IMG/VR virus record: IMGVR_UViG_3300002143_000074
Location: 1 to 59,203 of that record
Length of the DNA stretch: 59,203 nt
Direction: 5' to 3' (one strand)
From: a virus
Taxonomy: Duplodnaviria; Caudoviricetes
The notes beneath the pieces are model-generated. The model did not search any database, was not told the DNA's origin, and saw nothing but the letters and a program-made list of their open reading frames with translations. The position numbers and the translations under genes were made by a program. Below, one piece after another: positions 908 through 35,150 of the stretch (its first letter is position 1; the number at the start of each line of letters is the position of its first letter).

Positions 908-935
908 TTGACAAATCAGAAAGACCTGATACAGT
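908..935 (+). promoter_or_regulatory. sigma70-type promoter for the tRNA cluster
   Basis: TTGACA 908-913, 16-nt spacer, TACAGT 930-935, 20 nt upstream of the first tRNA. Confidence 0.7.
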
Positions 936-955
936 AAAACCAGATTAGATTTTTT

Positions 956-1028
956 GGTGTTGTGGCCGAGTTTAGGCATCTGTTCGCAAGACAGATTTAC
1001 ACTGGCTAAGTTCCAGTCGATACCTCCA
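956..1028 (+). tRNA. tRNA-Cys(GCA)-like, atypical loops
   Basis: Acceptor GGTGTTG/CGATACC, U73, encoded CCA; anticodon arm TCTGT-TCGCAAG-ACAGA; T arm ACTGG-CTAAGTT-CCAGT lacks TTC. Confidence 0.7.
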
Positions 1029-1037
1029 TTTTATTAT

Positions 1038-1109
1038 GGGTAGGTCGTCTAACTGTTAGGACAGTTCCCATTTCTGGAACAAATGCTGGTTCAAATCCAG
1101 CCCTACCCA
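1038..1109 (+). tRNA. tRNA of undetermined identity (non-canonical anticodon loop)
   Basis: Acceptor GGGTAGG/CCTACCC, D arm GTCT..GGAC, T arm GCTGG-TTCAAAT-CCAGC; anticodon arm GTTCC-CATTTCT-GGAAC. Confidence 0.7.
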
Positions 1110-1118
1110 CCTTTTAAT

Positions 1119-1318
1119 AGGACGTTAGCTCAATTGGTGTAGATATAGTTCTAATTGAATAGTTAGAAATATTTTACAGTATGAACTTGGTAGGTGAGTT
1201 GAAATCAACCAAAGTTACCGGTGACGATGGATGTGAGTAACCTTAAATATCATACTTTGTGGAGAGCACTTACTTTCTAAGTAAGGGGTTGGTGGTTCGA
1301 GTCCATCACGGCCTGCCA
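1119..1318 (+). tRNA. tRNA-Arg(TCT) interrupted by a ~124-nt insertion in the D-loop
   Basis: 5' piece AGGACGT-TA-GCTC-AATTGGT (1119-1138); 3' piece GAGC-A-CTTAC-TTTCTAA-GTAAG-GGGTT-GGTGG-TTCGAGT-CCATC-ACGGCCT-G-CCA (1264-1318); acceptor 6/7 paired, D stem GCTC/GAGC spans the insertion. Confidence 0.8.
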
Positions 1319-1321
1319 TTT

Positions 1322-1552
1322 ATGGTTTTGACTGAAAATGAAGAGAAGTTTTTGAAACGGTATTTTAACGAATACGCAATACACCGTGGAGAAGATGTTA
1401 TTGGTGTGTTGATGTTAAATGGTGCGTTCAAAGAACTTCCCGATGGTCAATTGGTTGAATTTTCTAATAAGTTAGAAGATAAACGGGTGGAAATTGAGTT
1501 AAGAGAACAGATTGAAAAACAAAAACAACGATACAACAAAAATGAAAACTGA
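1322..1552 (+). CDS. hypothetical protein
   Basis: ATG at 1322 just after the tRNA; the track's GTG start at 1259 lies inside the tRNA. Confidence 0.6.
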   Translation: MVLTENEEKFLKRYFNEYAIHRGEDVIGVLMLNGAFKELPDGQLVEFSNKLEDKRVEIELREQIEKQKQRYNKNEN

Positions 1553-1799
1553 ATTGTAGAATTGCAAAGAAGCCGTGTTTCACTTTAATAAAGCACATTT
1601 AACGAATCCGTCGATTCCTATGTGGGTGATTAAAGCCAAGGGTGAAACATTTTACGTGAATCACGTTACGGCGAATGTTGGTTGGACAACGAAAGAAACA
1701 GTTGACAATCCTCATACTAAGGGTAGTATCAAGTTTAAGAATGTGGATGTAGTAATTGAAAACGGTGACGGACTGATTACAAATGCATCAGTAGCTTAA
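1542..1799 (+). CDS. phage hypothetical protein, in-frame TAG at 1557-1559
   Basis: ATG 1542 overlaps the upstream gene end and reads MKTEL*NCKEAVFHFNKAHL in frame with ORF 1575..1799. Confidence 0.55.
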
Positions 1800-1855
1800 T
1801 GGCAAAGCGGGAATCTCTAAAATTCTGCATGTGGGTTCGATCCCCACCTTTTGCA
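1785..1855 (+). tRNA. amber suppressor tRNA (anticodon CTA)
   Basis: D arm GCTT/AAGC, anticodon arm GGAAT-CTCTAAA-ATTCT (CTA at 1817-1819), T arm GTGGG-TTCGATC-CCCAC; acceptor GCATCAG/CTTTTGC has 2 mismatches; no full CCA. Confidence 0.75.
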
Positions 1856-1928
1856 CCTTTGTTGAAAATTAAAATAAGTCGTTTGGAAAGTTTGATAATA
1901 CTTATCTGAACAATGAAGTGAAAATCGG

Positions 1929-2052: not shown

Positions 2053-3064
2053 GGTTAGTTGAGTGTTATACGTGAAACCTTAGATTAAAAACTCAACAGT
2101 ATGGTCGATAATACTAAAAGTTATCCGTCACCTATTGCCGACAAATAATGGAAACTATCATGAAGGGTGATTCATGACATTATTGGATTTATGTGTAAAT
2201 CCACGTTTTTGTAAATTTGTTCTTTGTAAGTTTAGAATTTGGGGGCTTGACCCCTTTAGATAAGTCATCGAAAGGTGACAAAAGAGAATTCCCCCTAACG
2301 GGAGCTCGCCATCGCAAGATGGACACTCAAGCAACTGATAGAGTCGTTGTCCTTCACTCAAAAGGTGGAGGTATATCTGACGCTGGATTGGAAAATTGTT
2401 GGTTTAGGGTAACACTGTAAACCGCATACTAACGGTACCGCCGAGCAATACCAATTCCTAACGGAACAGCCAAGAATAAGATTCAAGTCAAACATGTAGG
2501 TGTGAAACCGCAATTAAATGCTTACATGTAGAATGATAGAGAGTGGTCGGGGTAACCATGAACACAATCTTGAAATTCCGTTGAGTATCCGCAAGAGAAA
2601 GACATGGGTCGTGTCGCATATTGTATCCCAAAAGGATATGAAACGACAAGTAACGCACGACCCTGTTAGGTGCATTAATAGCTCAATGGTAGAGCAATAG
2701 TATTATACACTATATGATTGGTTCAATTCCAAGAATGAAAACGCAAAGTCGTTACGCTCAGTGAATGAAAGTGACTTAATTCCGAACTCTTAGGAGAATT
2801 CGGACGATAGACTGCTCGCAAGGCATAAATCGTTGATATTAAATCAAACGGTGCTCGCAAAGCTTAACTGTCCGCAAGACAGACGGGTGTAGAGATATTG
2901 AGTAGTTCATTGGTTGACTGGAAAAGCTACCAGTATAAAAAAGCAGTCATGTTAAATACTGATATAGGTTTCGACCATATTAGTGGATAAAATTAGGAAG
3001 CATTGTCGGCAGACGATGTATAATCTAATCAAAGATTAACGTAATATGGTGTAATCTCAACCAT
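2053..3064 (+). ncRNA. large ornate structured ncRNA (GOLLD/ROOL-like)
   Basis: ~1 kb without a credible ORF, higher GC than flanks, many GNRA/UAAC-capped hairpins and several 8-11 bp pairings between the 5' and 3' ends; lies in a phage tRNA cluster; family assignment not verified. Confidence 0.75.
2672..2738 (+). other. degenerate tRNA-like element embedded in the large ncRNA
   Basis: TA-GCTC-AATGGTA-GAGC D arm, ATAGT-ATTATAC-ACTAT anticodon-like arm, TTGG-TTCAATT-CCAA T arm; acceptor reduced to CATT/AATG. Confidence 0.6.
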
Positions 3065-3610
3065 TTAAACTAAAACCCACCCAAAATAAGACTTTTTCTT
3101 TTTAGAGATTAAACTAGAAATGCAACAATCAGCCGATTTTTTATTTTCCGATTTTAACATCTTGATAAAATCAAATCGTAACCCTGTAAAATTTCGACCA
3201 TCATATTTATTTTTAAAATTATAAATGAGATTATCAAACGATGGATTTTTATTTTTTGGTTGACTCCTTTTTTTTCGTTCCAAATCATTATAAAAAACGG
3301 TTAGTGGAGTACATGCTTTATAGTGTATATTATAAGCATTTTCGGTTTTGGCTATATCTAAATAAGTCTGTTCGACATTACGTAAATTGTTTATGTCTTC
3401 AACTATTTCTATTATTTGAAAATCGAAGTTTTCAATACCATATTTATTCCAAGCATTTTGTAAAGGTGCATTTTTATGTTTATTGTTGATTAAATCTTTT
3501 TTATGTCGGTTGAATCTTGATGTACATCCATAATTTATATTTTTACTACTACCGACGTAATATCGACTGTTAATTTTATTGATTATCTTGTATATTCCCA
3601 CTTTTTTCAT
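3065..3610 (-). CDS. GIY-YIG homing endonuclease
   Basis: GIYKIINKINSRYYVGSS, R..RH, LQNAWNKYG, EQ.YLD, YN motifs. Confidence 0.9.
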   Translation of the reverse strand: MKKVGIYKIINKINSRYYVGSSKNINYGCTSRFNRHKKDLINNKHKNAPLQNAWNKYGIENFDFQIIEIVEDINNLRNVEQTYLDIAKTENAYNIHYKACTPLTVFYNDLERKKRSQPKNKNPSFDNLIYNFKNKYDGRNFTGLRFDFIKMLKSENKKSADCCISSLISKKKKSYFGWVLV

Positions 3611-4066: not shown

Positions 4067-4441
4067 ATGGACAAACAACCGAAATCTGATTTAACGCAAA
4101 TTGCGAAGGAATTTACTGCATTTATCGTTAAGGAATTGGGAATACAAAAACCCTACAAGATTAAATTGTCTCCAACCAGAACAGAAGCCTTCACCACCCA
4201 CGCATACTACAATCCCTCCAATGGTGAAATCGGTGTTTGCATAAATAAGCGTCAAACCGCAGATGTATTACGTAGTTTAGCCCATGAAATGATTCATCAC
4301 AAACAAAATCAGGAAGGCCGATTGAAAACCGGTGAAGAAATACCTGATATTGGTGGAGAAATCGAAGATGAGGCCAATAGTGTTGCTGGGCAACTAGTTA
4401 AGAAGTTCGGTTACACCACAAAACACCAGATTTACGAATAA
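4067..4441 (+). CDS. zinc metallopeptidase-like protein (HExxH)
   Basis: LRSLAHEMIHHKQ ... IEDEAN motif. Confidence 0.7.
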   Translation: MDKQPKSDLTQIAKEFTAFIVKELGIQKPYKIKLSPTRTEAFTTHAYYNPSNGEIGVCINKRQTADVLRSLAHEMIHHKQNQEGRLKTGEEIPDIGGEIEDEANSVAGQLVKKFGYTTKHQIYE

Positions 4442-10205: not shown

Positions 10206-10604
10206 ATGATTAAATTAAAAGACCTTATACAAGAAGGGTGGATTGATGAGGTATCCACGACCACTCGTAGTTTTCGTCAAATTCATCAAGATGAAGATCC
10301 TTCTGGACAAAGACACGATTTGAGATTAACATGTGTCGAATGTGGAACTACCTCGACATGTAGATGTAGGAAACCAAAGAGAGAATTTAAGGGTTTATGT
10401 GATACGTGTGCTAAGGTCGATGAAAATAACGATTTTCTGGCCAAATTTGGAGTCGGTCCAAAATACAAAGCTCCCGAACCAGTAAAACGTAAATGTCCTA
10501 AATGTAATAAAGAAAATGCGGTTGTGAGAGAAAGTCATGCCGATACTGACATGAATGAAATGGTATTGGAATGTCCTGACTGTGGTTGTGAGGTAAGTTT
10601 ATGA
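10206..10604 (+). CDS. Cys-rich zinc-ribbon protein with MIKLKDLIQE leader
   Basis: CVEC, CRC, CDTC, CPKC, CPDC. Confidence 0.7.
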   Translation: MIKLKDLIQEGWIDEVSTTTRSFRQIHQDEDPSGQRHDLRLTCVECGTTSTCRCRKPKREFKGLCDTCAKVDENNDFLAKFGVGPKYKAPEPVKRKCPKCNKENAVVRESHADTDMNEMVLECPDCGCEVSL

Positions 10605-12052
10605 TTAAGATGAAAGATTTAGTTATGGAAGGTGCGAAGGAAAATGCTGCGTTAGATTACTTGAGTCAGTTGGTCCAAAGTGGACCATTCAAAAACCGAG
10701 TATATCTGGCGGGTGGTGCCGTGCGTGATATGGAATTGGGTAAAGACCCAAAAGACCTAGATGTAGTGGTAACGGGTGGTATTGACGCAGGCATGGAGTT
10801 TGCGAAGTGGGCAACGCAACATATGGGGAATTTCAAGGATGGTAGTAATCCTGTCTTATTTCCGACGTATGGAACGGCTAAATTTACATTATCTGGTATC
10901 ACGCACAAGGATATTGATTTGAGTGACGTCGATATTGAGGCGGTTGCAACTCGTAAGGAGAAATACACGGCTGGTAGTCGTAAACCAGAGGTTAGTGCTG
11001 GTGACTTGGAAGATGATGTAAATCGTCGTGATTTCACTGTCAACAGTTTGTTGAAAGATTTGACGACGGGTGAAATCTTGGATTTGACTGGTAAAGGTAA
11101 AGAGGACATTAAACGTGGTGTGGTTCAAACACCACTGAATCCTGATGTCATCTTCTCCGAAGACCCACTGCGTATTTTGAGAGCGGCACGATTTGCGGTC
11201 AAGTATAATTGGGATTTACCAATGTTCATGATTCGGGCAATGAAACGAAATGCACCTCAGTTAAAGAATATCAGTTTTGAACGTATCCGTGATGAATTGG
11301 ATAAGATGTTATTGACGACTTCCCCACACCGTGCAATCAAGTTGTTGAAGGTGACGGGTGTTCTTGATTATGTCATTCCAGAGTTCAAGGATGCGTATAA
11401 AATGACGCAGAACAAGTATCATACTGCGACGGTATTCAATCATACGTTGGACGTGTTATCCAACACACAATCGAATAGTTTGATTTCTCGTATTGGTGCA
11501 TTATTGCACGATATTGGTAAGACGGCTACACGAACGGTGGTAGATAACGAAGTTCATTTCTATGCACACGAAATGGTTGGTGCAAAAATGGCTGAGAAGA
11601 TTCTTACCCGTTTGAAGTATCCACGGGAAATCATTGATGCGGTTGTTTTGGGTGTTCGTAACCACATGCGTTTGAAACAGTCGGGTGAAGAAGGAGAGAA
11701 AATTTCCGACAAAGCCCTACGTAAAATTACGGTGGAATTACAACCTCATTTACATGACATTTTGAGTATTATCCAAGCTGATAACTTGGCTCATGCTCCG
11801 GGTCATCAAATGCCAAATCAAATTCCGAATATCATCAAACGTATTGAACAGTTGATGAATACCATTCCTGTTAAGGGTCAGAAATTACCTGTCACGGGTG
11901 AGGACTTGAAGGCCATGGGAATTCCTACTGGACCATTATACAAAGAGTTGTTGGACTTGGTGAGAGACAAGAGATTGGAAACACCAAACGCAACAAAAGA
12001 AGAGTATTTAGAGTTGATTAAGAACTACCTGTCAACGAAGAATCCTCAATAA
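10601..12052 (+). CDS. cca: CCA-adding tRNA nucleotidyltransferase with HD domain
   Basis: GGAVRD, DLD, RRDFTVN, EDPLRILRAARF, ERIRDEL, LLHDIGK. Confidence 0.9.
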   Translation: MIKMKDLVMEGAKENAALDYLSQLVQSGPFKNRVYLAGGAVRDMELGKDPKDLDVVVTGGIDAGMEFAKWATQHMGNFKDGSNPVLFPTYGTAKFTLSGITHKDIDLSDVDIEAVATRKEKYTAGSRKPEVSAGDLEDDVNRRDFTVNSLLKDLTTGEILDLTGKGKEDIKRGVVQTPLNPDVIFSEDPLRILRAARFAVKYNWDLPMFMIRAMKRNAPQLKNISFERIRDELDKMLLTTSPHRAIKLLKVTGVLDYVIPEFKDAYKMTQNKYHTATVFNHTLDVLSNTQSNSLISRIGALLHDIGKTATRTVVDNEVHFYAHEMVGAKMAEKILTRLKYPREIIDAVVLGVRNHMRLKQSGEEGEKISDKALRKITVELQPHLHDILSIIQADNLAHAPGHQMPNQIPNIIKRIEQLMNTIPVKGQKLPVTGEDLKAMGIPTGPLYKELLDLVRDKRLETPNATKEEYLELIKNYLSTKNPQ

Positions 12053-16774: not shown

Positions 16775-17935
16775 ATGAAAAAAACTTACGATAATCTCTA
16801 CACTCTTGACACCACTGGTAAAACCCGTATTTGGCATATGGTCCAGAACGGTAATAAATACCGAACGATTTCGGGTGTGAAAGACGGCCAGCTCGTAGAA
16901 TCTGATTGGACCGAGTGTGACGGAAAGAATCTTGGTAAGACGAACGAAACGTCTGGTGCGGACCAAGCAACCAAGGAAATTGAGGCCAAGTACAAAAAGC
17001 AACTCAAGACTGGTTATCACAAAAAAGAGAGTGATATTTCCGAAGGAACGACTTATTTTAAACCAATGTTGGCTAAGCATTTGGACGATTATATTGAAAA
17101 GATTGACTTCAAAAAGGGTGTTCTTGTCCAGAACAAATACAACGGTGTCCGGTGCGTAGCTCGGTTGGAAGATGGTGAAGTTGTGCTTCGTAGTCGTAAA
17201 GGTGAGTTGTGGATTAGTGTTCCCCACATCAACCGAGATTTGGAGTCGTTTTTTAACGAATACCCAAGTGCTATTTTGGATGGTGAATTGTATAATTATG
17301 ACCTACGATTCAAATTGAATGAATTGGTCAAGCTGGTCCGTAAAACTAAATCGTCCAGTATCACACCTGACATTCTCAAACAGAGTGAAGAGATGGTGCG
17401 ATTCTATGTTTACGATGGTTATGACAATTCGTGGGACCAATATAGTTCGGAGACGTTTTACACCATTCGTAAAACTTGGATTGATAGTATTGTTCCTAAA
17501 TACTCCAAATACTATCGTAAGGTAAAGAGTGATTTGGTTCATTCTATGGCCGCAGTGGATAAAATTTATGAATCCTATTTGGCCGATGGGGAAGAGGGTG
17601 CGATTATTCGTTTGGCCGATTCTCCATATGAACATAAACGTAGTAAATATCTTCTCAAGTATAAACCAGAAGATGACGCGGAGTGTGTTATCATCAAATT
17701 GATTGAGGGAACGGGTAATTGGTCAGGCACGGCCAAGACGGCCACAATTACATGGAATGGAGAAACCTTCGATGCGACGTTCAAAGGAACGTATGAACAA
17801 GGTGTGGAACGCCTAAACAATCCTAAAGATTGGGAAGGTAAGACGGTTACTTTTCTTTATACCGGATTAACGGGTAAGGGCGTGCCTAACTATGCTCGAA
17901 TTGACCCGGATAATTGTTTTAAAGGGGACCGATAA
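16775..17935 (+). CDS. lig: ATP-dependent DNA ligase
   Basis: PMLA, motif I KYNGVR, LDGELY, YVYD, EGAIIR, LLKYK and OB-fold tail. Confidence 0.92.
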   Translation: MKKTYDNLYTLDTTGKTRIWHMVQNGNKYRTISGVKDGQLVESDWTECDGKNLGKTNETSGADQATKEIEAKYKKQLKTGYHKKESDISEGTTYFKPMLAKHLDDYIEKIDFKKGVLVQNKYNGVRCVARLEDGEVVLRSRKGELWISVPHINRDLESFFNEYPSAILDGELYNYDLRFKLNELVKLVRKTKSSSITPDILKQSEEMVRFYVYDGYDNSWDQYSSETFYTIRKTWIDSIVPKYSKYYRKVKSDLVHSMAAVDKIYESYLADGEEGAIIRLADSPYEHKRSKYLLKYKPEDDAECVIIKLIEGTGNWSGTAKTATITWNGETFDATFKGTYEQGVERLNNPKDWEGKTVTFLYTGLTGKGVPNYARIDPDNCFKGDR

Positions 17936-18776
17936 GTGTCCATCCTTTATGATGAGGACGTTGTTTATAACAAACTAAAGAAACGTTACTTGGATTTAGA
18001 GAATATTTTGTATATAAATCATATCTAGTTCCGGTAAACGTTTCTTGGGAATTTGTATTATAAAATTTATAAATGGTGTGGTCATAACATGCATTATTAC
18101 TTCCTTTGGATATATTACTTTTTATTCTTTTATCTCGTAATATTTGCTTCGTCACCTCTGTATGTTTTTTACCATAAAAAGAATTTTTTTCACCAATATT
18201 TAATTCACGTAGTTTATCAATTGTTTCTTTAGAATGTTTTGTTCCCAATTTAATTATTTTTAATTTGTTTTTTGTTTCGTTGGTGTGTTTACGACCGATA
18301 TTAGCTTTTCTGAGCTTTTCGATAACTTCCGGGGTCATTTCCACCTTTCCAGCTATAAAACTTAAATTATAACATTTATTTGGTTCGAGTTTTGCAATAT
18401 CTAAATATTTTTGTTCAGTTATTAATAACTCACCGATATTCGTCAGTTCTACTATTTCCCATACAAAATTTTCACTTCCATATTTATTCCACGCACGTTG
18501 TAAACGGATGTTAGGGTGTGTTTTGGAATTAAGCATATATTTATGTGTCACCCATCTACCCTTGTATTTTGAGTTGATGTCTTTTGAACTTCCCACATAA
18601 TACTTTCCGGTCACCTTATTCACTATTTTGTATATCCCGCTGAGTTTCCCAATATCGTTCCATTCTTTTTTTATTACATTTATCTCGGTTTCTTTGATAA
18701 TATCGTTTGGAACGTTCGTTTGATTGTTTTCGACGATATTCGACTGTTCGGTTAAGTTTTTTTCTTCCCATATCAT
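17919..18776 (-). CDS. GIY-YIG homing endonuclease with NUMOD3 repeats (start uncertain)
   Basis: SGIYKIVNKVTGKYYVGSS, LQRAWNKYG, GRKHTNETK / GTKHSKETI / GKKHTEVTK repeats. Confidence 0.88.
   Translation of the reverse strand: MIWEEKNLTEQSNIVENNQTNVPNDIIKETEINVIKKEWNDIGKLSGIYKIVNKVTGKYYVGSSKDINSKYKGRWVTHKYMLNSKTHPNIRLQRAWNKYGSENFVWEIVELTNIGELLITEQKYLDIAKLEPNKCYNLSFIAGKVEMTPEVIEKLRKANIGRKHTNETKNKLKIIKLGTKHSKETIDKLRELNIGEKNSFYGKKHTEVTKQILRDKRIKSNISKGSNNACYDHTIYKFYNTNSQETFTGTRYDLYTKYSLNPSNVSLVCYKQRPHHKGWTLIGPL
18616..18771 (-). CDS. 51-aa basic protein (MGRKK family) overlapping GIY-YIG gene
   Basis: MGRKKLNRTVEYRRKQSNERSKRYYQRNRDKCNKKRMERYWETQRDIQNSE; TATTTATA 8 nt upstream. Confidence 0.65.
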   Translation of the reverse strand: MGRKKLNRTVEYRRKQSNERSKRYYQRNRDKCNKKRMERYWETQRDIQNSE

Positions 18777-18864
18777 GATTATAAATATAACGTGAAAACA
18801 TAAAACGTGAAAGAATCTTGACTTTTTGGTGAGAGTAGTCGATACTAGATTCAGATTAATAAAA

Positions 18865-19113
18865 ATGAACACACCTGAGAGTTTATACGAAGTCTGGCTT
18901 AACACTCGGAATATAACCACCGTTTATGATGAAGCGATTGAACGGTATGAAGGTGATATAAAGGGTTATGAATGGTCCATTCGTGAACAGGAATGGTTGG
19001 ATATAAGTAAACCGGTTAAAGAACATAATTTAAAAATATTAAAAAAAGAGTTACGTAAAGTTAAATCGAAATTGACTAAAACTCTAAAAATCAGAAAAGA
19101 GATAGTAAAATGA
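18865..19113 (+). CDS. hypothetical protein
   Basis: ATG 18865 downstream of TTGACT at 18818. Confidence 0.55.
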   Translation: MNTPESLYEVWLNTRNITTVYDEAIERYEGDIKGYEWSIREQEWLDISKPVKEHNLKILKKELRKVKSKLTKTLKIRKEIVK

Positions 19114-25826: not shown

Positions 25827-25854
25827 TTGACTTTATCTAAAACCTAGATATAGT
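25827..25854 (+). promoter_or_regulatory. sigma70-type promoter, probably leaderless transcript
   Basis: TTGACT, 16 nt, TATAGT, 7 nt before ATG 25862. Confidence 0.65.
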
Positions 25855-25861
25855 GACGTCA

Positions 25862-26305
25862 ATGAATGTTTTGAACAAATACATCAATGGTAACTACACA
25901 GTAACCATCTTTGATGATGGAACCAAGGAACGGGAGTATGAAGGTATTCCCGTTCCTAAATGGCCCGAATCATGTGATGTGAAGGTGACTGATTACTGTG
26001 ATGCGAATTGTCCGTTTTGTTTTCACCCCGATTCCGAAGTAATGACATTATTAGGAAACAAAAAAATATCAGAATTGGTGGTTGGTCAATTGATATATTC
26101 TTTTGATGAAACTAAAAAACAGATAGAACTATCTACAATAGAACAGGTTATAACTAAAAATGTAGATGAAAAGTTGATTGTAATTGAATTAGAAAATGGG
26201 AAAGTCATCAAATGTACCTATAATCATGAAATTTTTACAAATAATCGTGGTTGGGTAGAAGCATCTAAACTTTCAATAGAAGACGATATAAATCACATTT
26301 TATAA
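25862..26305 (+). CDS. radical SAM protein N-extein fused to split intein N-fragment
   Basis: YCDANCPF then intein block A CFHPDSEV (from 26018) and block B CTYNHEIF; stop after 95 intein residues. Confidence 0.88.
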   Translation: MNVLNKYINGNYTVTIFDDGTKEREYEGIPVPKWPESCDVKVTDYCDANCPFCFHPDSEVMTLLGNKKISELVVGQLIYSFDETKKQIELSTIEQVITKNVDEKLIVIELENGKVIKCTYNHEIFTNNRGWVEASKLSIEDDINHIL

Positions 26306-26330
26306 TTGGTTTTAGATACTTATATCTATA

Positions 26331-27122
26331 ATGAATAGATATATAACAAATTTAAAATTAAAAACGTGCCATATTTGTAATTCCACATTTAATGGAACAC
26401 GACATAGAAAAACATGTTCTCCAGAATGTACTAGAAAATCAAAATTAAATGGAATGGTTAAGGTATTCCATCGTAAATTTTGTAAAGATTGTAATATTTT
26501 AATTTCCGAAAAAATTAAATTTGGATCTCTTGCAAAAGAAATAAACAATAACAATAAAAGATGTAAAAAATGTTCGGATATAAATCGACACAATTGGTAT
26601 ATCAATAGAAACAAAATTAAATCCGAAGCAAATAAGAAAAGTAATGGTAAAAAAATGGAAACCTTAAAACATCGGATGAAGATTAATAATCCAATGTTTA
26701 AATCGGAGACAAGATTAAAAGTTAAAAAAACTTTAGATGAAAAAATAAAATCTGGAATTATAAAATACAAAACTGGTCCAGAACACCATCTATGGAAAGG
26801 AAATCGTCAAAATAACAGTGTAATTAGAACAAGATTGAAAAATTGGAAAAAATCAGTATTGGAGAAATTTGATTACAAGTGTTATCATTGTGAATCTAAT
26901 ATAAATTTAGAAATACATCACATAGAACCATTAAGAAATATCATAAAAAAATTCACAGATAAACCGTTAAAAGAATACAATCAAGATTCCAAAGAATTTG
27001 AAAATTTAATTTTTATCTTGATTAATTATCATTTCAATAGTAATATTGGCGTATGTTTATGTGATAAGTGTCATTCGCAAGTGGATAAATTTAGAAAACA
27101 AACTTTTATTAATGAAAATTAA
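26331..27122 (+). CDS. HNH homing endonuclease with N-terminal zinc fingers
   Basis: CxxC pairs, H.WKG, CYHC...LEIHHI...N.G..LCDKCH. Confidence 0.85.
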   Translation: MNRYITNLKLKTCHICNSTFNGTRHRKTCSPECTRKSKLNGMVKVFHRKFCKDCNILISEKIKFGSLAKEINNNNKRCKKCSDINRHNWYINRNKIKSEANKKSNGKKMETLKHRMKINNPMFKSETRLKVKKTLDEKIKSGIIKYKTGPEHHLWKGNRQNNSVIRTRLKNWKKSVLEKFDYKCYHCESNINLEIHHIEPLRNIIKKFTDKPLKEYNQDSKEFENLIFILINYHFNSNIGVCLCDKCHSQVDKFRKQTFINEN

Positions 27123-27957
27123 ATCAATTAGTCGAGAAAAATATACTGGTGTTGTCTATGATTTGACCGTGGTTAAAAATCATAATTATTTTGTTTCTAA
27201 TTGTTTGGTACACAACTGTCACGAAAAATCAACCGTGGATGGACTTCATGGTGATGAAGAATTGGGATTGAATCTATTTCGAGACTTGCCAGCCGGTGCA
27301 GAACTTGCTATTGGTGGTGGTAATCCTTTGAGTTGGGATGGTTTGTATAGATTTACCGACACCATGAAAGAACGGGGTGTAATCTGTAACATCACCGTCA
27401 ATAGTGTTCACGTTCGTAAATTCGATTCTCTAATCGAAAGTATGGTTCAAGACAAAACCATTCACGGTCTTGGTATCAGTTACTTCCGAGCATTACTGCA
27501 CAATTGTCTCCCATTCACTAAGATGACTCCAAATGTCGTATTTCACGTCATTATGGGTGTTCATACCATTGAGGATTTGCGACACATTATCAAGACAGTT
27601 CCCAACGCAAAAGTGTTGTTGTTGGGATACAAACAATATGGTCGTGGTGAAAAATACTTCTCCCCAACCATTGAGAAAAATTTGTATGATTGGTATGTGA
27701 CTTTGCATGAATTTTTCAAGGTCAAGGATTTGACTCTCAGTTTTGATAACTTGGGAATCAAACAAATGAAGCTGGAGAGATTCTTTGATAAAGAACAATG
27801 GAATCAATTTTACATGGGTGACGATGGAAAGTTCACACTTTTTGTCGATTTAGTTAAACTAGAATATTGTAAATCTTCAACCACACCAATACGATATAAA
27901 ATTGAAAAAGACGATAATTCTGAGTCTATTTTTAGAAAAATTAGAGAAATAGGATAA
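27112..27957 (+). CDS. split intein C-fragment fused to radical SAM C-extein
   Basis: MKIKSI...VYDLTV..NHNYF...LVHN (35 aa) then CHEKS, ELAIGGGNP, NITVN. Confidence 0.88.
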   Translation: MKIKSISREKYTGVVYDLTVVKNHNYFVSNCLVHNCHEKSTVDGLHGDEELGLNLFRDLPAGAELAIGGGNPLSWDGLYRFTDTMKERGVICNITVNSVHVRKFDSLIESMVQDKTIHGLGISYFRALLHNCLPFTKMTPNVVFHVIMGVHTIEDLRHIIKTVPNAKVLLLGYKQYGRGEKYFSPTIEKNLYDWYVTLHEFFKVKDLTLSFDNLGIKQMKLERFFDKEQWNQFYMGDDGKFTLFVDLVKLEYCKSSTTPIRYKIEKDDNSESIFRKIREIG

Positions 27958-27978: not shown

Positions 27979-28872
27979 ATGAGTAAAAATTATCACATAT
28001 ATAGAATAAAAAATATTCTCACAAATAAAGTTTATGTCGGAATGACAACATGTTTAACAAATCGTTGGAAAAGACATCTAAAACTGTTAAAGTGGAATAA
28101 ACATCATAGTGTAAAATTGCAAAGAAGTTATAATAAATATGGCGTTGAAAATTTTACATTTGAGAAAATATCGTCACACATCTGTTCATTATCCGAAATA
28201 CGGTTGATAGAAATAAAAATCATAAAGATAGAAAATTCTTATCATGATGGGTATAATTGTACAGAAGGTGGAGATTGTTATACACATAAACTTGGTAAAT
28301 TACATCCTCTTTCAAAACCTTTACATCAATATGATTTAGATGGAAATTGGATTAAAACTTGGGAATCCCGTTCTCTCGCAGTTGGTGAATTAAAAAAAGA
28401 AATATCGGTGACCAAATCAAAAAAACCAAAAATTTCACACAATCATATATGGTCATACGATTTCTACGGACCATTAACACGTCGTTTTCATAAAGTGTTT
28501 AAGTATTCTCTCAATGGTCTATTCATATCATCTTATGTCAATTGTCAACATGCGGCTAAGGTAAATAAATTAAATTCATCAAATATAGACCGATGCATCC
28601 GAGGAAAGACAAAAACTGCATATGGGTATCAGTGGAATTCTAAGTATTGTGATAAAATTTGTGAAGTAATTCCCAATAATCATGATAAAATAGTAAAACA
28701 GTCGGGAAAACGTATAGTGCAATATGACATTTATGGTAATTTAATTAACTCATTTCCATCATTAGGGAAAGCCGCTTTATCGGTTTCTGGAAACTACGAA
28801 AATATATCAAAATGCTGTAACGGTCACAGTAAAACCGCATATGGGTATATCTGGTCGTTTGAAAAGAGTTGA
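27979..28872 (+). CDS. GIY-YIG homing endonuclease with NUMOD1-type repeats
   Basis: IYRIKN...YVGMT, RW.RH, three QYD/KYS-L-DG...W/Y/F-S repeats ending TAYGY.W. Confidence 0.88.
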   Translation: MSKNYHIYRIKNILTNKVYVGMTTCLTNRWKRHLKLLKWNKHHSVKLQRSYNKYGVENFTFEKISSHICSLSEIRLIEIKIIKIENSYHDGYNCTEGGDCYTHKLGKLHPLSKPLHQYDLDGNWIKTWESRSLAVGELKKEISVTKSKKPKISHNHIWSYDFYGPLTRRFHKVFKYSLNGLFISSYVNCQHAAKVNKLNSSNIDRCIRGKTKTAYGYQWNSKYCDKICEVIPNNHDKIVKQSGKRIVQYDIYGNLINSFPSLGKAALSVSGNYENISKCCNGHSKTAYGYIWSFEKS

Positions 28873-32118: not shown

Positions 32119-32565
32119 ATGAAAACCAAAATTGACACATTAATTCTCGAAGCACGTAAATCACGTAATACCCCTCATTTGGCTGCGTATCAATACGTCA
32201 AATCGGCGATTCAAACTACCGAGGGTAGAGATACGGTGTTGCCCGATGGTAAGGTAGTTCCAACAGTGTTGTCCGATGTGGATGTTTTGAAGGTCATTGA
32301 GAAGGAGATTAAGTCTCTCAACGAAATGATTGAAAACAAAATTGCACATAACAACGAATCGGAAATGGTGACGGTTTTGTTGAAACTTCTTCCAGCCAAG
32401 GTTGAGGTTTCCCAATACGATTCGATTGTCACTACCGCAATTACAACAGTTGGTGCAACCACTCCAAAAGATATGGGTAAGGTCATGGCTGAAATCAAGA
32501 AGGTCTATGGTTCAACCGTTGACAACAAGGTAATCAGTGAAGTGGTTAAATCCAAATTGAAATAA
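32119..32565 (+). CDS. GatB/YqeY domain protein
   Basis: A.K, KEIK, LP, KDMGKVM, D.K.IS..VK pattern, 148 aa. Confidence 0.85.
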   Translation: MKTKIDTLILEARKSRNTPHLAAYQYVKSAIQTTEGRDTVLPDGKVVPTVLSDVDVLKVIEKEIKSLNEMIENKIAHNNESEMVTVLLKLLPAKVEVSQYDSIVTTAITTVGATTPKDMGKVMAEIKKVYGSTVDNKVISEVVKSKLK

Positions 32566-33550: not shown

Positions 33551-34318
33551 ATGAAGAAATTCTATGTATATATTTATTTAGACCAGCGAAAACATGGCAA
33601 GTGGATTTTTAAAGATAAAGTTTTTAGCTATCAGCCATTCTACGTAGGAAAGGGAACAAATAAAAGAGATATCTCGCATTTATGCCCGTATATGTTGAAT
33701 AAAAAAACATATAAATCATCAACAATAAAATCAATCATTTCAGAAACTGGTGAATTACCGATACATGAAAGAATATACGAAAATTTAACAGAAGCAGAAG
33801 CTATTTCAATAGAAAAAGATATAATCAAACATTTTAAACGAAAAGATTTATTCACGAGTGGTATTTTATGTAATCACACAGATGGTGGTGATGGTGTAGT
33901 TAATCTCTCAAATGAGATTAGAAATAATATGGGTAAGAAATTCCAAAAACCCGTATATCAATACGATTTAGATGGTAATTTTATTAAAAAATGGGATTCT
34001 TTAACATCTGTTTCAAATATAGTAGAAACTATTTCTAATATATCTACTGCTATAAAAAGAAATGGAACTTGTGCAGGGTTTCGATGGTCTTATGAAGATA
34101 AAGGAAAAAAAATCGAAAAAACAATAAAATATCAGATGCCTATAAAATACAAAAATATTCATCAAATTTCAATAGATGGCGGGACTACTGTGGCAGTCCA
34201 TAAAAGTGCATTGGAAGCAGCTACCAGTTTAAACTTGACAAACAGATGCGCCCGTAATAAGATAACAGAGGCTGTTAAAAAAGGAACAACTGCATATGGA
34301 TATAAATGGAAAATATAA
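33551..34318 (+). CDS. GIY-YIG superfamily homing endonuclease with NUMOD1-type repeats
   Basis: FYVYIY...PFYVGKG..R, E..II, L.N.TDGGDG, QYDLDG.FIK.W.S, TAYGYKW. Confidence 0.82.
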   Translation: MKKFYVYIYLDQRKHGKWIFKDKVFSYQPFYVGKGTNKRDISHLCPYMLNKKTYKSSTIKSIISETGELPIHERIYENLTEAEAISIEKDIIKHFKRKDLFTSGILCNHTDGGDGVVNLSNEIRNNMGKKFQKPVYQYDLDGNFIKKWDSLTSVSNIVETISNISTAIKRNGTCAGFRWSYEDKGKKIEKTIKYQMPIKYKNIHQISIDGGTTVAVHKSALEAATSLNLTNRCARNKITEAVKKGTTAYGYKWKI

Positions 34319-35150
34319 AAAAGACGCATTAGGTATGCGTATAAAATCTAGTTACGAGGATAGAACTAGATACTCTCTACCTCGTAGAACATATACAATT
34401 ATTCGTTTAGACGGAAAAGCATTTCATACTTACACAAAAGGGTTGAAAAAACCATTTGATAAAGAATTGATTGATGATTTGGACAATACTGTAAAAGCAA
34501 TCCTTCCTCAAATACAAGGGGCAGTATTCGCATATGTTCAAAGCGATGAAATCTCAATTCTCTTGACTGATTTTGAAAAGGATACTACTGATGCGTGGTT
34601 TGATGGTAATATTCAGAAAATCTGTTCTGTGTCAGCAAGTTTGATGACTGCTGAGTTTAACCAATATAGGTTTAAAACTTGGCTTAAAGAGTATTCCAAA
34701 GCATTATCTGAATCGGATTTACATACATTTTCAGACGGACAAGTGGTGGGTATCGAAGAATTTCGTCCTGCGGCATTCGATTCCCGTGTATTCACCATTC
34801 CCGATAGAACGGAAGTGATGAACTACTTTATTTGGAGAAATCAAGACTGCACACGTAACAGTGTCAGTATGGTGGCCCAAAGTCTATACAGTCACAAGGA
34901 ATTGCACGGTAAGAACAGTTCTCAACTCCAAGAAATGATTTTCCAAAAGGGAATCAATTGGGCTGACTATGACCCAAGTTTGAAGAATGGTCGTGTCATT
35001 ATCAAAGAGAAAGTGTTTGATTTGGATGAAATAACTCCTGAGAACATTGCACCACCCGCAAGAACTCGATGGACATCACAACCTGCGTGGAAATTCACAC
35101 AGGACAAGGATAAGTTGTTGACCATGATTCCCGAATACCAATATGATTAA
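34296..35150 (+). CDS. thg1: tRNA-His guanylyltransferase Thg1-like protein
   Basis: IIRLDGKAFH, YVQSDEIS, WFDG.IQK, FDSR, YFIWR.QD..RNS. Confidence 0.92.
   Translation: MDINGKYKKDALGMRIKSSYEDRTRYSLPRRTYTIIRLDGKAFHTYTKGLKKPFDKELIDDLDNTVKAILPQIQGAVFAYVQSDEISILLTDFEKDTTDAWFDGNIQKICSVSASLMTAEFNQYRFKTWLKEYSKALSESDLHTFSDGQVVGIEEFRPAAFDSRVFTIPDRTEVMNYFIWRNQDCTRNSVSMVAQSLYSHKELHGKNSSQLQEMIFQKGINWADYDPSLKNGRVIIKEKVFDLDEITPENIAPPARTRWTSQPAWKFTQDKDKLLTMIPEYQYD

Follow-up and report, generated by a model that had tools for sequence, protein, structure and literature searches.

The 59,203-nucleotide stretch of DNA analyzed here, referred to as the window, is the entire IMG/VR virus record IMGVR_UViG_3300002143_000074. 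Because the record is rated only 17% complete, we take the window to be a fragment of a jumbo phage. In the RNA island that forms its left end, positions 1119–1138 and 1263–1318 of the plus strand together make up a tRNA-Arg(UCU) gene whose CCA end is encoded; the 124 bases between these two parts interrupt the D-loop and fit no known intron or RNA family. We tentatively favor the view that an uncultured jumbo phage has here a genuine tRNA-Arg(UCU) gene, and that the gene carries an orphan intervening sequence which would be removed from the RNA. The word orphan is meant within the reach of blastn and of exact-pattern and word searches, by which relatives of the insert were sought.

Anatomy of the Split Gene

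The 5′ exon (1119–1138, plus strand) supplies the 5′ strand of the acceptor stem (1119–1125), U8 and A9, the D-stem strand GCTC (1128–1131) and the D-loop stretch AATTGGT (1132–1138), which runs from A14 to U20 and includes G18 and G19. The insert (1139–1262) lies between D-loop positions 20 and 21. The 3′ exon (1263–1318) resumes with A21 (1263), closes the D-stem with GAGC (1264–1267), and continues through A26, the anticodon arm CTTAC/TTTCTAA/GTAAG, the variable region GGGTT, the T-arm GGTGG/TTCGAGT/CCATC, the 3′ acceptor strand ACGGCCT, G73, and the CCA end (1316–1318).

Read across the insert by a split-tRNA scanner, which treats the interruption as a 132-nt “D-loop,” the D-, anticodon, and T-stems are fully paired (4 of 4, 5 of 5, and 5 of 5 pairs), and the acceptor stem forms six of its seven pairs, with an A4·G69 mismatch. 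The four stems are accompanied by a 7-nt anticodon loop with U33 and a T-loop of the form TTCRA, and every nucleotide involved in conserved tertiary contacts is intact (U8, A14, A15/U48, G18, G19, A21, U33, G53, U54, U55, C56, A58, and C61). The scanner result alone is no proof, because one weak false positive was obtained elsewhere in the 59 kb. Bases U8 to U20, 13 in all, read as a textbook 5′ part of a tRNA, and the two acceptor strands match each other.

ARAGORN makes no call on the native split gene, and the Rfam tRNA model gives the native DNA a partial match (1254–1307, 28.3 bits against a cut-off of 29). When positions 1139–1262 are deleted in silico, ARAGORN calls a 76-nt tRNA-Arg(tct). 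Together with the stem counts, this call confirms the claim of a previous sequence-only reading of this DNA that removal of approximately 1139–1262 yields a canonical tRNA with CCA. The D-arm restored by that removal is identical to the D-arm of an intact tRNA-Lys in another large phage. Three alternative choices of boundary also lead to a tRNA-Arg call, and TTGG recurs at the 3′ end of the insert, whose tail TTGTGG (1257–1262) is unpaired in the predicted folds and partly repeats the TTGG of the D-loop. Thus sequence alone leaves the exact position of the junction ambiguous. The choice bears on the identity elements of bacterial arginyl-tRNA synthetase, which are C35, U36 or G36, and A20, the last being a main element in E. 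coli. C35 and U36 are present in the split gene; position 20 is U with the 1139–1262 boundary, and the other boundaries place A after G19 and shorten the D-loop.

The insert is contained in two independent DNA assemblies and is therefore not a misassembly, a concern that the sequence-only reading had raised. In run X1 a 45-kb Logan contig spans 900–3100 through the insert, with one base difference and one 18-nt gap, both elsewhere. In run X3, from a different study, contigs tile 1001–1558 and so cross both junctions; their one polymorphism, A/G at 1227, falls within the insert. No contig joint that skips the insert occurs in the four runs compared.

Structure and Composition of the Insert

The sequence-only reading had described the insert as structured, and this description holds in part. 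The first domain (1139–1177) is an A+U-rich hairpin of 16 bp with a GAAU loop, one bulge, and one mismatch (G+C 0.21). It appears in every predicted fold and modestly beats shuffled sequences (z −2.4, with 6 of 500 as good). The second part (1178–1256) may form a multi-stem domain closed by AGTATGA/TCATACT, but its fold is not robust. It is predicted to be no more stable than shuffles (z −0.9; 85 of 500), and the same is true of the full insert (z −1.3; 54 of 500); the complete 200-nt RNA has a z of −1.34. The proposed closing stem is recovered when the insert is folded alone, but the inner stems differ from those described, and in the 200-nt fold the junction dissolves and is replaced by pairings with the 3′ exon. 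On these models, the premise of a structured domain is weaker than had been stated. Thermodynamic z scores are a weak guide in this setting: among the three members of a conserved family of D-loop-insert genes in other phages (L098, L134, and L277, described below), they range from −2.9 to +0.4. The structure of the insert is without comparative support because no relative was found.

When the insert is folded alone, its two helical parts adjoin without a linker and its ends lie side by side. Constraining the 200-nt RNA to the cloverleaf gives a predicted energy of −48.5 kcal/mol, compared with −50.1 kcal/mol for the free fold; a cost of only 1.6 kcal/mol suggests that the tRNA can form around the insert. 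The G+C content of the insert (0.33) approximates that of spacers and background (0.34–0.36; 0.356 for the window overall) and is below that of the tRNAs (0.39–0.52) and of the GOLLD RNA of the same island (0.39–0.41).

Known Classes Tested against the Insert

With permissive filters and E values up to 10, Rfam searches of both strands of 1050–1400 returned nothing beyond tRNA parts and noise. A group I intron can be set aside, since there is no match to RF00028 at E values up to 10 and no recognizable core, and 124 nt is far below the size of a group I core, in agreement with the earlier judgment that the insert is too small for one. Known self-cleaving ribozymes (hammerhead, twister, pistol, hatchet, HDV-like, and the others in Rfam) likewise gave no covariance match at E values up to 10. 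The sequence-only reading had seen no bulge-helix-bulge motif, and it was correct: the motif, two 3-nt bulges around a 4-bp helix at the junctions, was sought in 484 placements, of which 18 offer the 4-bp central helix and one of these also three outer pairs, about the chance level (roughly 0.5 expected). This lone relaxed candidate is rich in G·U pairs and uses bases of the D-stem.

A miniature transposable element and tRNA pieces were rejected as sources. The insert has neither terminal inverted repeats nor a target-site duplication, and it has no second copy in the 59 kb, where the best other match is 13 nt long. A single-copy insertion of this kind fits an intron-like element better than a transposon. 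Local alignment to 10 tRNA or tRNA-like sequences, tried on both strands, did not outscore shuffles (lowest p about 0.05 in 20 tests). The words TTCTAA and TTGGTAG recur in the insert, and a 12-mer at the 5′ junction recurs within GOLLD with one mismatch, which we take to be chance.

Search for Relatives

A blastn search with 1100–1330 against 50,697 GenBank phage records gave no match. Two exact words, from the insert or the anticodon arm, had no matches in IMG/VR; in the GTDB genomes the anticodon-arm word had none, and a junction pattern had eight, all by chance and within coding DNA. The search of phage contigs that had been suggested as a check thus yielded no relative of the insert in GenBank phages or, with the words used, in IMG/VR. 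Full-text literature searches, judged from their result listings, turned up no description of a bacterial or phage tRNA gene with an insert in its D-loop.

Neighboring proteins led to no second copy of the split gene. The proteins encoded at 99–602 and 1322–1552 have no relatives in IMG/VR. The latter has a single relative in the JGI metagenomes, which is 67% identical over 52 residues; it lies at locus L096, in a different phage, and has no tRNA nearby. The protein encoded at 4067–4441 led to 64 loci; ARAGORN found no tRNA in the five that it scanned, and the split-tRNA scanner found no split gene in the loci examined. An 1153-residue protein and the GOLLD region had no GenBank match, and a Thg1-like protein matched only distant phages there, at less than 60% identity. 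In the nearest phages that could be reached (51% identity in one protein), the tRNA islands are ordinary. The relatives G001 and G003 have tRNA islands with uninterrupted tRNAs only, and G001 has an intact but dissimilar tRNA-Arg(tct).

A Parallel Family of D-Loop-Insert Genes

IMG/VR was scanned in two ways. A type-blind scan, for a common D-arm split by 100–130 bases, gave at least 120 listed matches, mostly tandem tRNA pairs; a scan specific for UCU gave 93 loci, all of which were examined. Among the matches listed, the two scans together contain three real cases, all of one family, and none like the window gene. The members (L098, 283–479 on the minus strand; L134, 292–489; L277, 292–489) come from phage sequences of 140 kb, 45 kb, and 183 kb, the last of them complete, each with at least 27 tRNA genes and a CUA suppressor. 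They have an Arg(UCU)-type body with a perfect 7-bp acceptor stem, an ACCA end, a 6-nt loop containing UCU, and an insert of 121–122 nt immediately 5′ of A21. The three are homologous, with compensatory changes in 11 of 52 predicted pairs, located in the acceptor stem, the anticodon stem, and the insert. Because these pairs are kept and an intact tRNA-Arg(tct) is found elsewhere in all three phages, the family is a selected, probably non-decoding RNA derived from a tRNA. It has no Rfam match and is apparently undescribed. In G007 and G008 the family gene adjoins a tRNA-Asn.

The window gene resembles this family in its Arg(UCU)-type body, in the location of its insert just 5′ of A21, in the length of the insert, and in its presence in a large phage with many tRNAs and a CUA suppressor. 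It differs in that the inserts have no similarity in sequence or profile, and in that the family has the 6-nt loop, A after G19, and an intact tRNA-Arg(UCU) in addition. Membership was rejected by the family model (R1), which finds no match in the window with default filters and, with filters off, scores 1128–1267 at 1.3 bits (E about 0.9). That the inserts agree in length and site partly reflects the search design; the common Arg(UCU) type, which the type-blind scan brought out, does not.

Other unusual tRNA genes were noted in large phages. Two L098-family phages have, in syntenic places, genes to which ARAGORN assigns four-base anticodons, catt and cgaa (L221, 9286–9363; L298, 19826–19902). 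Class I tRNAs of 84–88 nt (Gln, Glu, Trp, Lys, and a neighbor of tRNA-Asn) carry an extra short hairpin in the variable region, often with a GNRA-type loop (L093, 4508–4593, 7578–7662, 8583–8666, and 17579–17666; L134, 111–194). On the minus strand of L264, a small viral contig, a truncated tRNA-Arg(UCU), comprising the 5′ part through the anticodon arm, lies about 60 nt before an intact copy. A search for GOLLD in five other phage records, including those of L098-family phages, gave no match, but the control genomes also gave none, so that this negative carries no information.

Fate of the Insert

We infer the transcription, processing, removal, and any function of the split gene as follows. 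A sigma-70-like promoter at 908–935 (plus strand; TTGACA, a spacer of 16 nt, and TG-TACAGT), recognized by its match to 10 of 12 consensus positions, likely drives an RNA operon covering 956–1318 together with the open reading frame (ORF) behind it. From this promoter the gene would be co-transcribed with a tRNA-shaped RNA (956–1030) and with tRNA-Lys(UUU) (1038–1111, plus strand; ARAGORN, and 51.4 bits with the Rfam tRNA model), which ends 7 nt upstream of the split gene. RNase P would cut at 1119, and the encoded CCA would provide the 3′ end. The insert would point outwards from the variable stretch of the D-loop between G18–G19 and A21, and because it lies there, the cloverleaf and elbow could still form. 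Proteins, rather than the RNA itself, would remove the insert. It is possible that an endonuclease makes the cuts and an RNA ligase rejoins the ends; alternatively, excision without rejoining may leave a tRNA in two pieces that the acceptor and D stems hold together. RNase III excises rRNA intervening sequences without rejoining. The product would read AGA, the commonest arginine codon of the phage (221 of 642 arginine codons in 80 ORFs).

Removal is favored by the precise, single-copy insertion without target duplication, by the near-perfect state of the gene, by its place 7 nt behind tRNA-Lys in a promoter-led operon, by the demand for AGA, and by the wealth of selfish elements in the genome. 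A G+C content at the level of spacers and below that of stable RNAs is more in keeping with a segment to be discarded than with a functional domain. There is also precedent in the Lak megaphages, which, according to the excerpted description in PMC6784885, have tRNA introns of no established class.

Several observations weigh against removal. With the 1139–1262 boundary the gene has U after G18–G19, where all six comparison genes (three intact phage tRNA-Arg(UCU) genes and the three members of the D-loop-insert family) have A, and its acceptor stem has the A·G mismatch at 4:69. A Pfam scan of 80 ORFs of the window, which represents about 17% of the phage genome, found no splicing endonuclease or RNA ligase family; the sole ligase match is an ATP-dependent DNA ligase domain. 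We know of no machinery in bacteria or phages for a D-loop intron. No relative was found that could reveal selection on the insert. Metatranscriptome contigs of two runs cover only GOLLD (2258–3041) and leave the split gene uncovered; in RNA runs X5 and X8 no contig lies over 900–2257, a gap that bears on neither the expression nor the splicing of the tRNA.

Many of the same observations would be expected of a dead gene, and it is possible, though somewhat unlikely, that a tRNA-Arg(UCU) gene was recently broken by 124 bp of functionless DNA and, transcribed or not, gives no working tRNA. The acceptor mismatch, the U after G18–G19, the missing relatives of the insert, and the missing RNA cover in contigs all agree with this explanation, as do the background G+C content of the insert and folds that are no better than shuffles beyond the first hairpin. 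The truncated tRNA-Arg beside an intact copy in L264 demonstrates that broken tRNA genes persist in phages. Yet in the window gene all stems but for one pair and all nucleotides of the tertiary contacts are intact, the insertion is clean and at a single point with the D-arm exactly preserved, the place in a promoter-led operon has been kept, AGA is the commonest arginine codon, and the same allele is found in runs of two studies. A very recent break would look identical.

It is also conceivable, but we consider it unlikely, that the insert is retained and that the 200-nt RNA is the final product, tRNA-shaped with an extra D-loop domain beside the elbow. Such an RNA might have a non-decoding use, as a decoy, a scaffold, or a partner of phage RNAs, or it might be tolerated in decoding. 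The L098, L134, and L277 family shows that genes of this kind exist and are kept, and the window contains two more tRNA-shaped RNAs that are unable to decode normally, namely that at 956–1030 and the tRNA-like piece of GOLLD. Moreover, the stretch of the D-loop that holds the insert varies in length among tRNAs. However, the insert is not homologous to those of the family, the anticodon loop is a canonical one of 7 nt rather than 6 nt, and background G+C content with a weak fold is unlike the stable RNAs nearby. A mass of 124 nt at the elbow would probably also hinder contacts with the ribosome.

A new small self-splicing or self-cleaving ribozyme in the D-loop is a very improbable explanation. 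The sequence-only reading had noted that U is the last base of the 5′ exon and G the last base of the insert, as in group I introns, and this is true for the 1139–1262 boundary (U1138 and G1262). The sole complement to the exon end, ACCAA at 1207–1211, could pair with the exon TTGGT. This putative guide stands about 70 nt from the splice site, however, and would form A-U rather than G·U there. No Rfam ribozyme or intron family matches on either strand at E values up to 10, the smallest natural group I introns are about 200 nt long, no conservation or covariation points to a catalytic core, and the fold is at chance level. Finally, an assembly artefact or chimera is hardly credible, as nothing was found in its favor and the contigs of X1 and X3 carry the insert through both junctions.

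The interpretation offered in the sequence-only reading therefore stands in its negative points (no group I intron, the size, no bulge-helix-bulge) but is weakened in its premise of a structured domain, and it left out a recently disrupted, dead gene. The options that it named, a mini-intron or ribozyme, a protein-spliced intron, and a tRNA scaffold bearing an RNA domain, are all candidate explanations.

Genomic Setting

In the native window ARAGORN finds six tRNAs: Gln(CUG), Lys(UUU), a CUA suppressor, Cys(GCA), an Ile(UAU)-like piece, and Ser(GCU). There is no second tRNA-Arg among these calls. Sigma-70-like promoters at 908, 1702, 1929, and 3787 all lie upstream of RNA genes, and those before the tRNAs at 1702 and 1929 are near-repeats of the one at 908. 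The insert itself contains no promoter-like site.

The tRNA-shaped RNA at 956–1030 (plus strand) has a 7-bp acceptor stem, a discriminator base, and an encoded CCA. A 7-bp stem capped by a 5-nt loop takes the place of the anticodon arm, and the D- and T-loops depart from the canonical form. Its unconstrained fold is a cloverleaf, and neither ARAGORN nor Rfam calls it. The sequence of this arm recurs twice within GOLLD; run X1 differs at 968. The GOLLD RNA (2606–3063, plus strand) scores 209.8 bits with Rfam and has the tRNA-Ile(UAU)-like piece embedded at 2671–2740. RNA contigs from two metatranscriptome runs of different studies cover 2258–3041 with zero differences, which suggests that the GOLLD RNA begins about 350 nt upstream of the Rfam match. 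The tRNA with a CUA anticodon, of the amber suppressor type, is encoded at 1785–1857 (plus strand). Under translation table 11 the stops of the 80 ORFs are TAA in 50 cases, TGA in 25, and TAG in only five.

The ORF behind the split gene (1322–1552, plus strand) encodes 76 amino acids and starts 4 nt past the CCA. It is a real gene, without a Pfam family and with no visible Shine-Dalgarno sequence. With so short a distance to the CCA and no such site, 3′ processing of the tRNA would leave a near-leaderless mRNA. In run X1 this ORF has lost 18 nt in frame at 1408.

The genome is rich in selfish elements. Four ORFs resemble GIY-YIG homing endonucleases (3065–3610 and 17919–18920 on the minus strand; 27979–28872 and 33551–34318 on the plus strand), one of which sits immediately behind GOLLD, and a gene at 25853–27957 (plus strand) bears intein or Hint pieces. 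Genes for tRNA handling, all on the plus strand, encode a CCA-adding enzyme with an HD domain, a YqeY-like protein, and a Thg1-like 3′–5′ polymerase (10601–12052, 32119–32565, and 34296–35150); the Thg1-like protein is 40–48% identical to phage gene products annotated as tRNA-His guanylyltransferase. Other genes recognized by Pfam belong to the metabolism of nicotinamide adenine dinucleotide and of phosphoribosyl pyrophosphate, or encode the DNA ligase.

Comparison with Known Systems

To our knowledge, bacteria and phages interrupt tRNA genes only with self-splicing group I introns, or rarely group II introns, in the anticodon loop. If the insert is spliced out of the D-loop, this would be the first case in the bacterial world of tRNA splicing outside group I. 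More generally, a living gene may point either to a new removal pathway or to tRNA-shaped RNAs that, as a class, carry an extra domain at the elbow, which is the region of a tRNA read by RNase P, T-boxes, and the ribosome; a dead gene would be a minor curiosity. A conserved second family with the same tRNA type and insertion site makes the question testable. As a speculation that we hold to be quite unlikely, large bacterial phages might have an undescribed way to build or process Arg(UCU)-type tRNAs with an insert of about 120 nt before A21, of which the window gene and the L098 family would be fast-diverged or independent cases. Such RNAs might be spliced in the D-loop by phage or host enzymes, or they might act as decoys or adaptors with a decorated elbow, for example against anticodon nucleases.

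Group I introns of bacterial tRNA genes occupy the anticodon loop of tRNA-Leu, tRNA-fMet, tRNA-Ile, and tRNA-Arg. The split gene shares with them an intervening sequence without an ORF in a tRNA gene of bacterial type and, for one choice of boundary, the U and G ends. In contrast, its insert lies in the D-loop and is 124 nt long rather than about 200 nt or more. The tRNA introns of archaea and some eukaryotes may occur at non-canonical positions, including the D-loop, where splicing endonuclease cuts a bulge-helix-bulge. The position of the insert thus has a counterpart there, and removal in those systems is by proteins, as is proposed for the insert. The host of the window phage, however, is bacterial, as judged from the sigma-70-like promoters, the encoded CCA, and GOLLD.

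A different precedent is provided by rRNA intervening sequences excised by RNase III. These too are short, ORF-less, hairpin-forming inserts in stable RNA genes of bacterial systems, and their excision suggests that a working, fragmented RNA could result. The hairpin in the window is only 16 bp long and has a bulge and a mismatch, and we know of no description of this type of excision for a tRNA.

The “enigmatic” introns of Lak megaphages (Devoto et al. 2019, PMC6784885) are similar in that tRNA genes of huge phages with suppressor tRNAs and large tRNA sets are interrupted by unclassed sequence. They were found with the eukaryote settings of tRNAscan, which seek introns in the anticodon loop, and the excerpted description names no D-loop case. 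Finally, tRNAs are embedded in the linker of GOLLD, as described in the excerpted account of Kretsch et al. 2025 (PMC12286853). Both there and in the window, a tRNA island is associated with GOLLD and tRNA-shaped pieces are covalently joined to structured RNA, but the relationship is reversed: in the GOLLD linker the tRNA lies inside a large RNA, whereas in the split gene a small RNA segment lies inside a tRNA.
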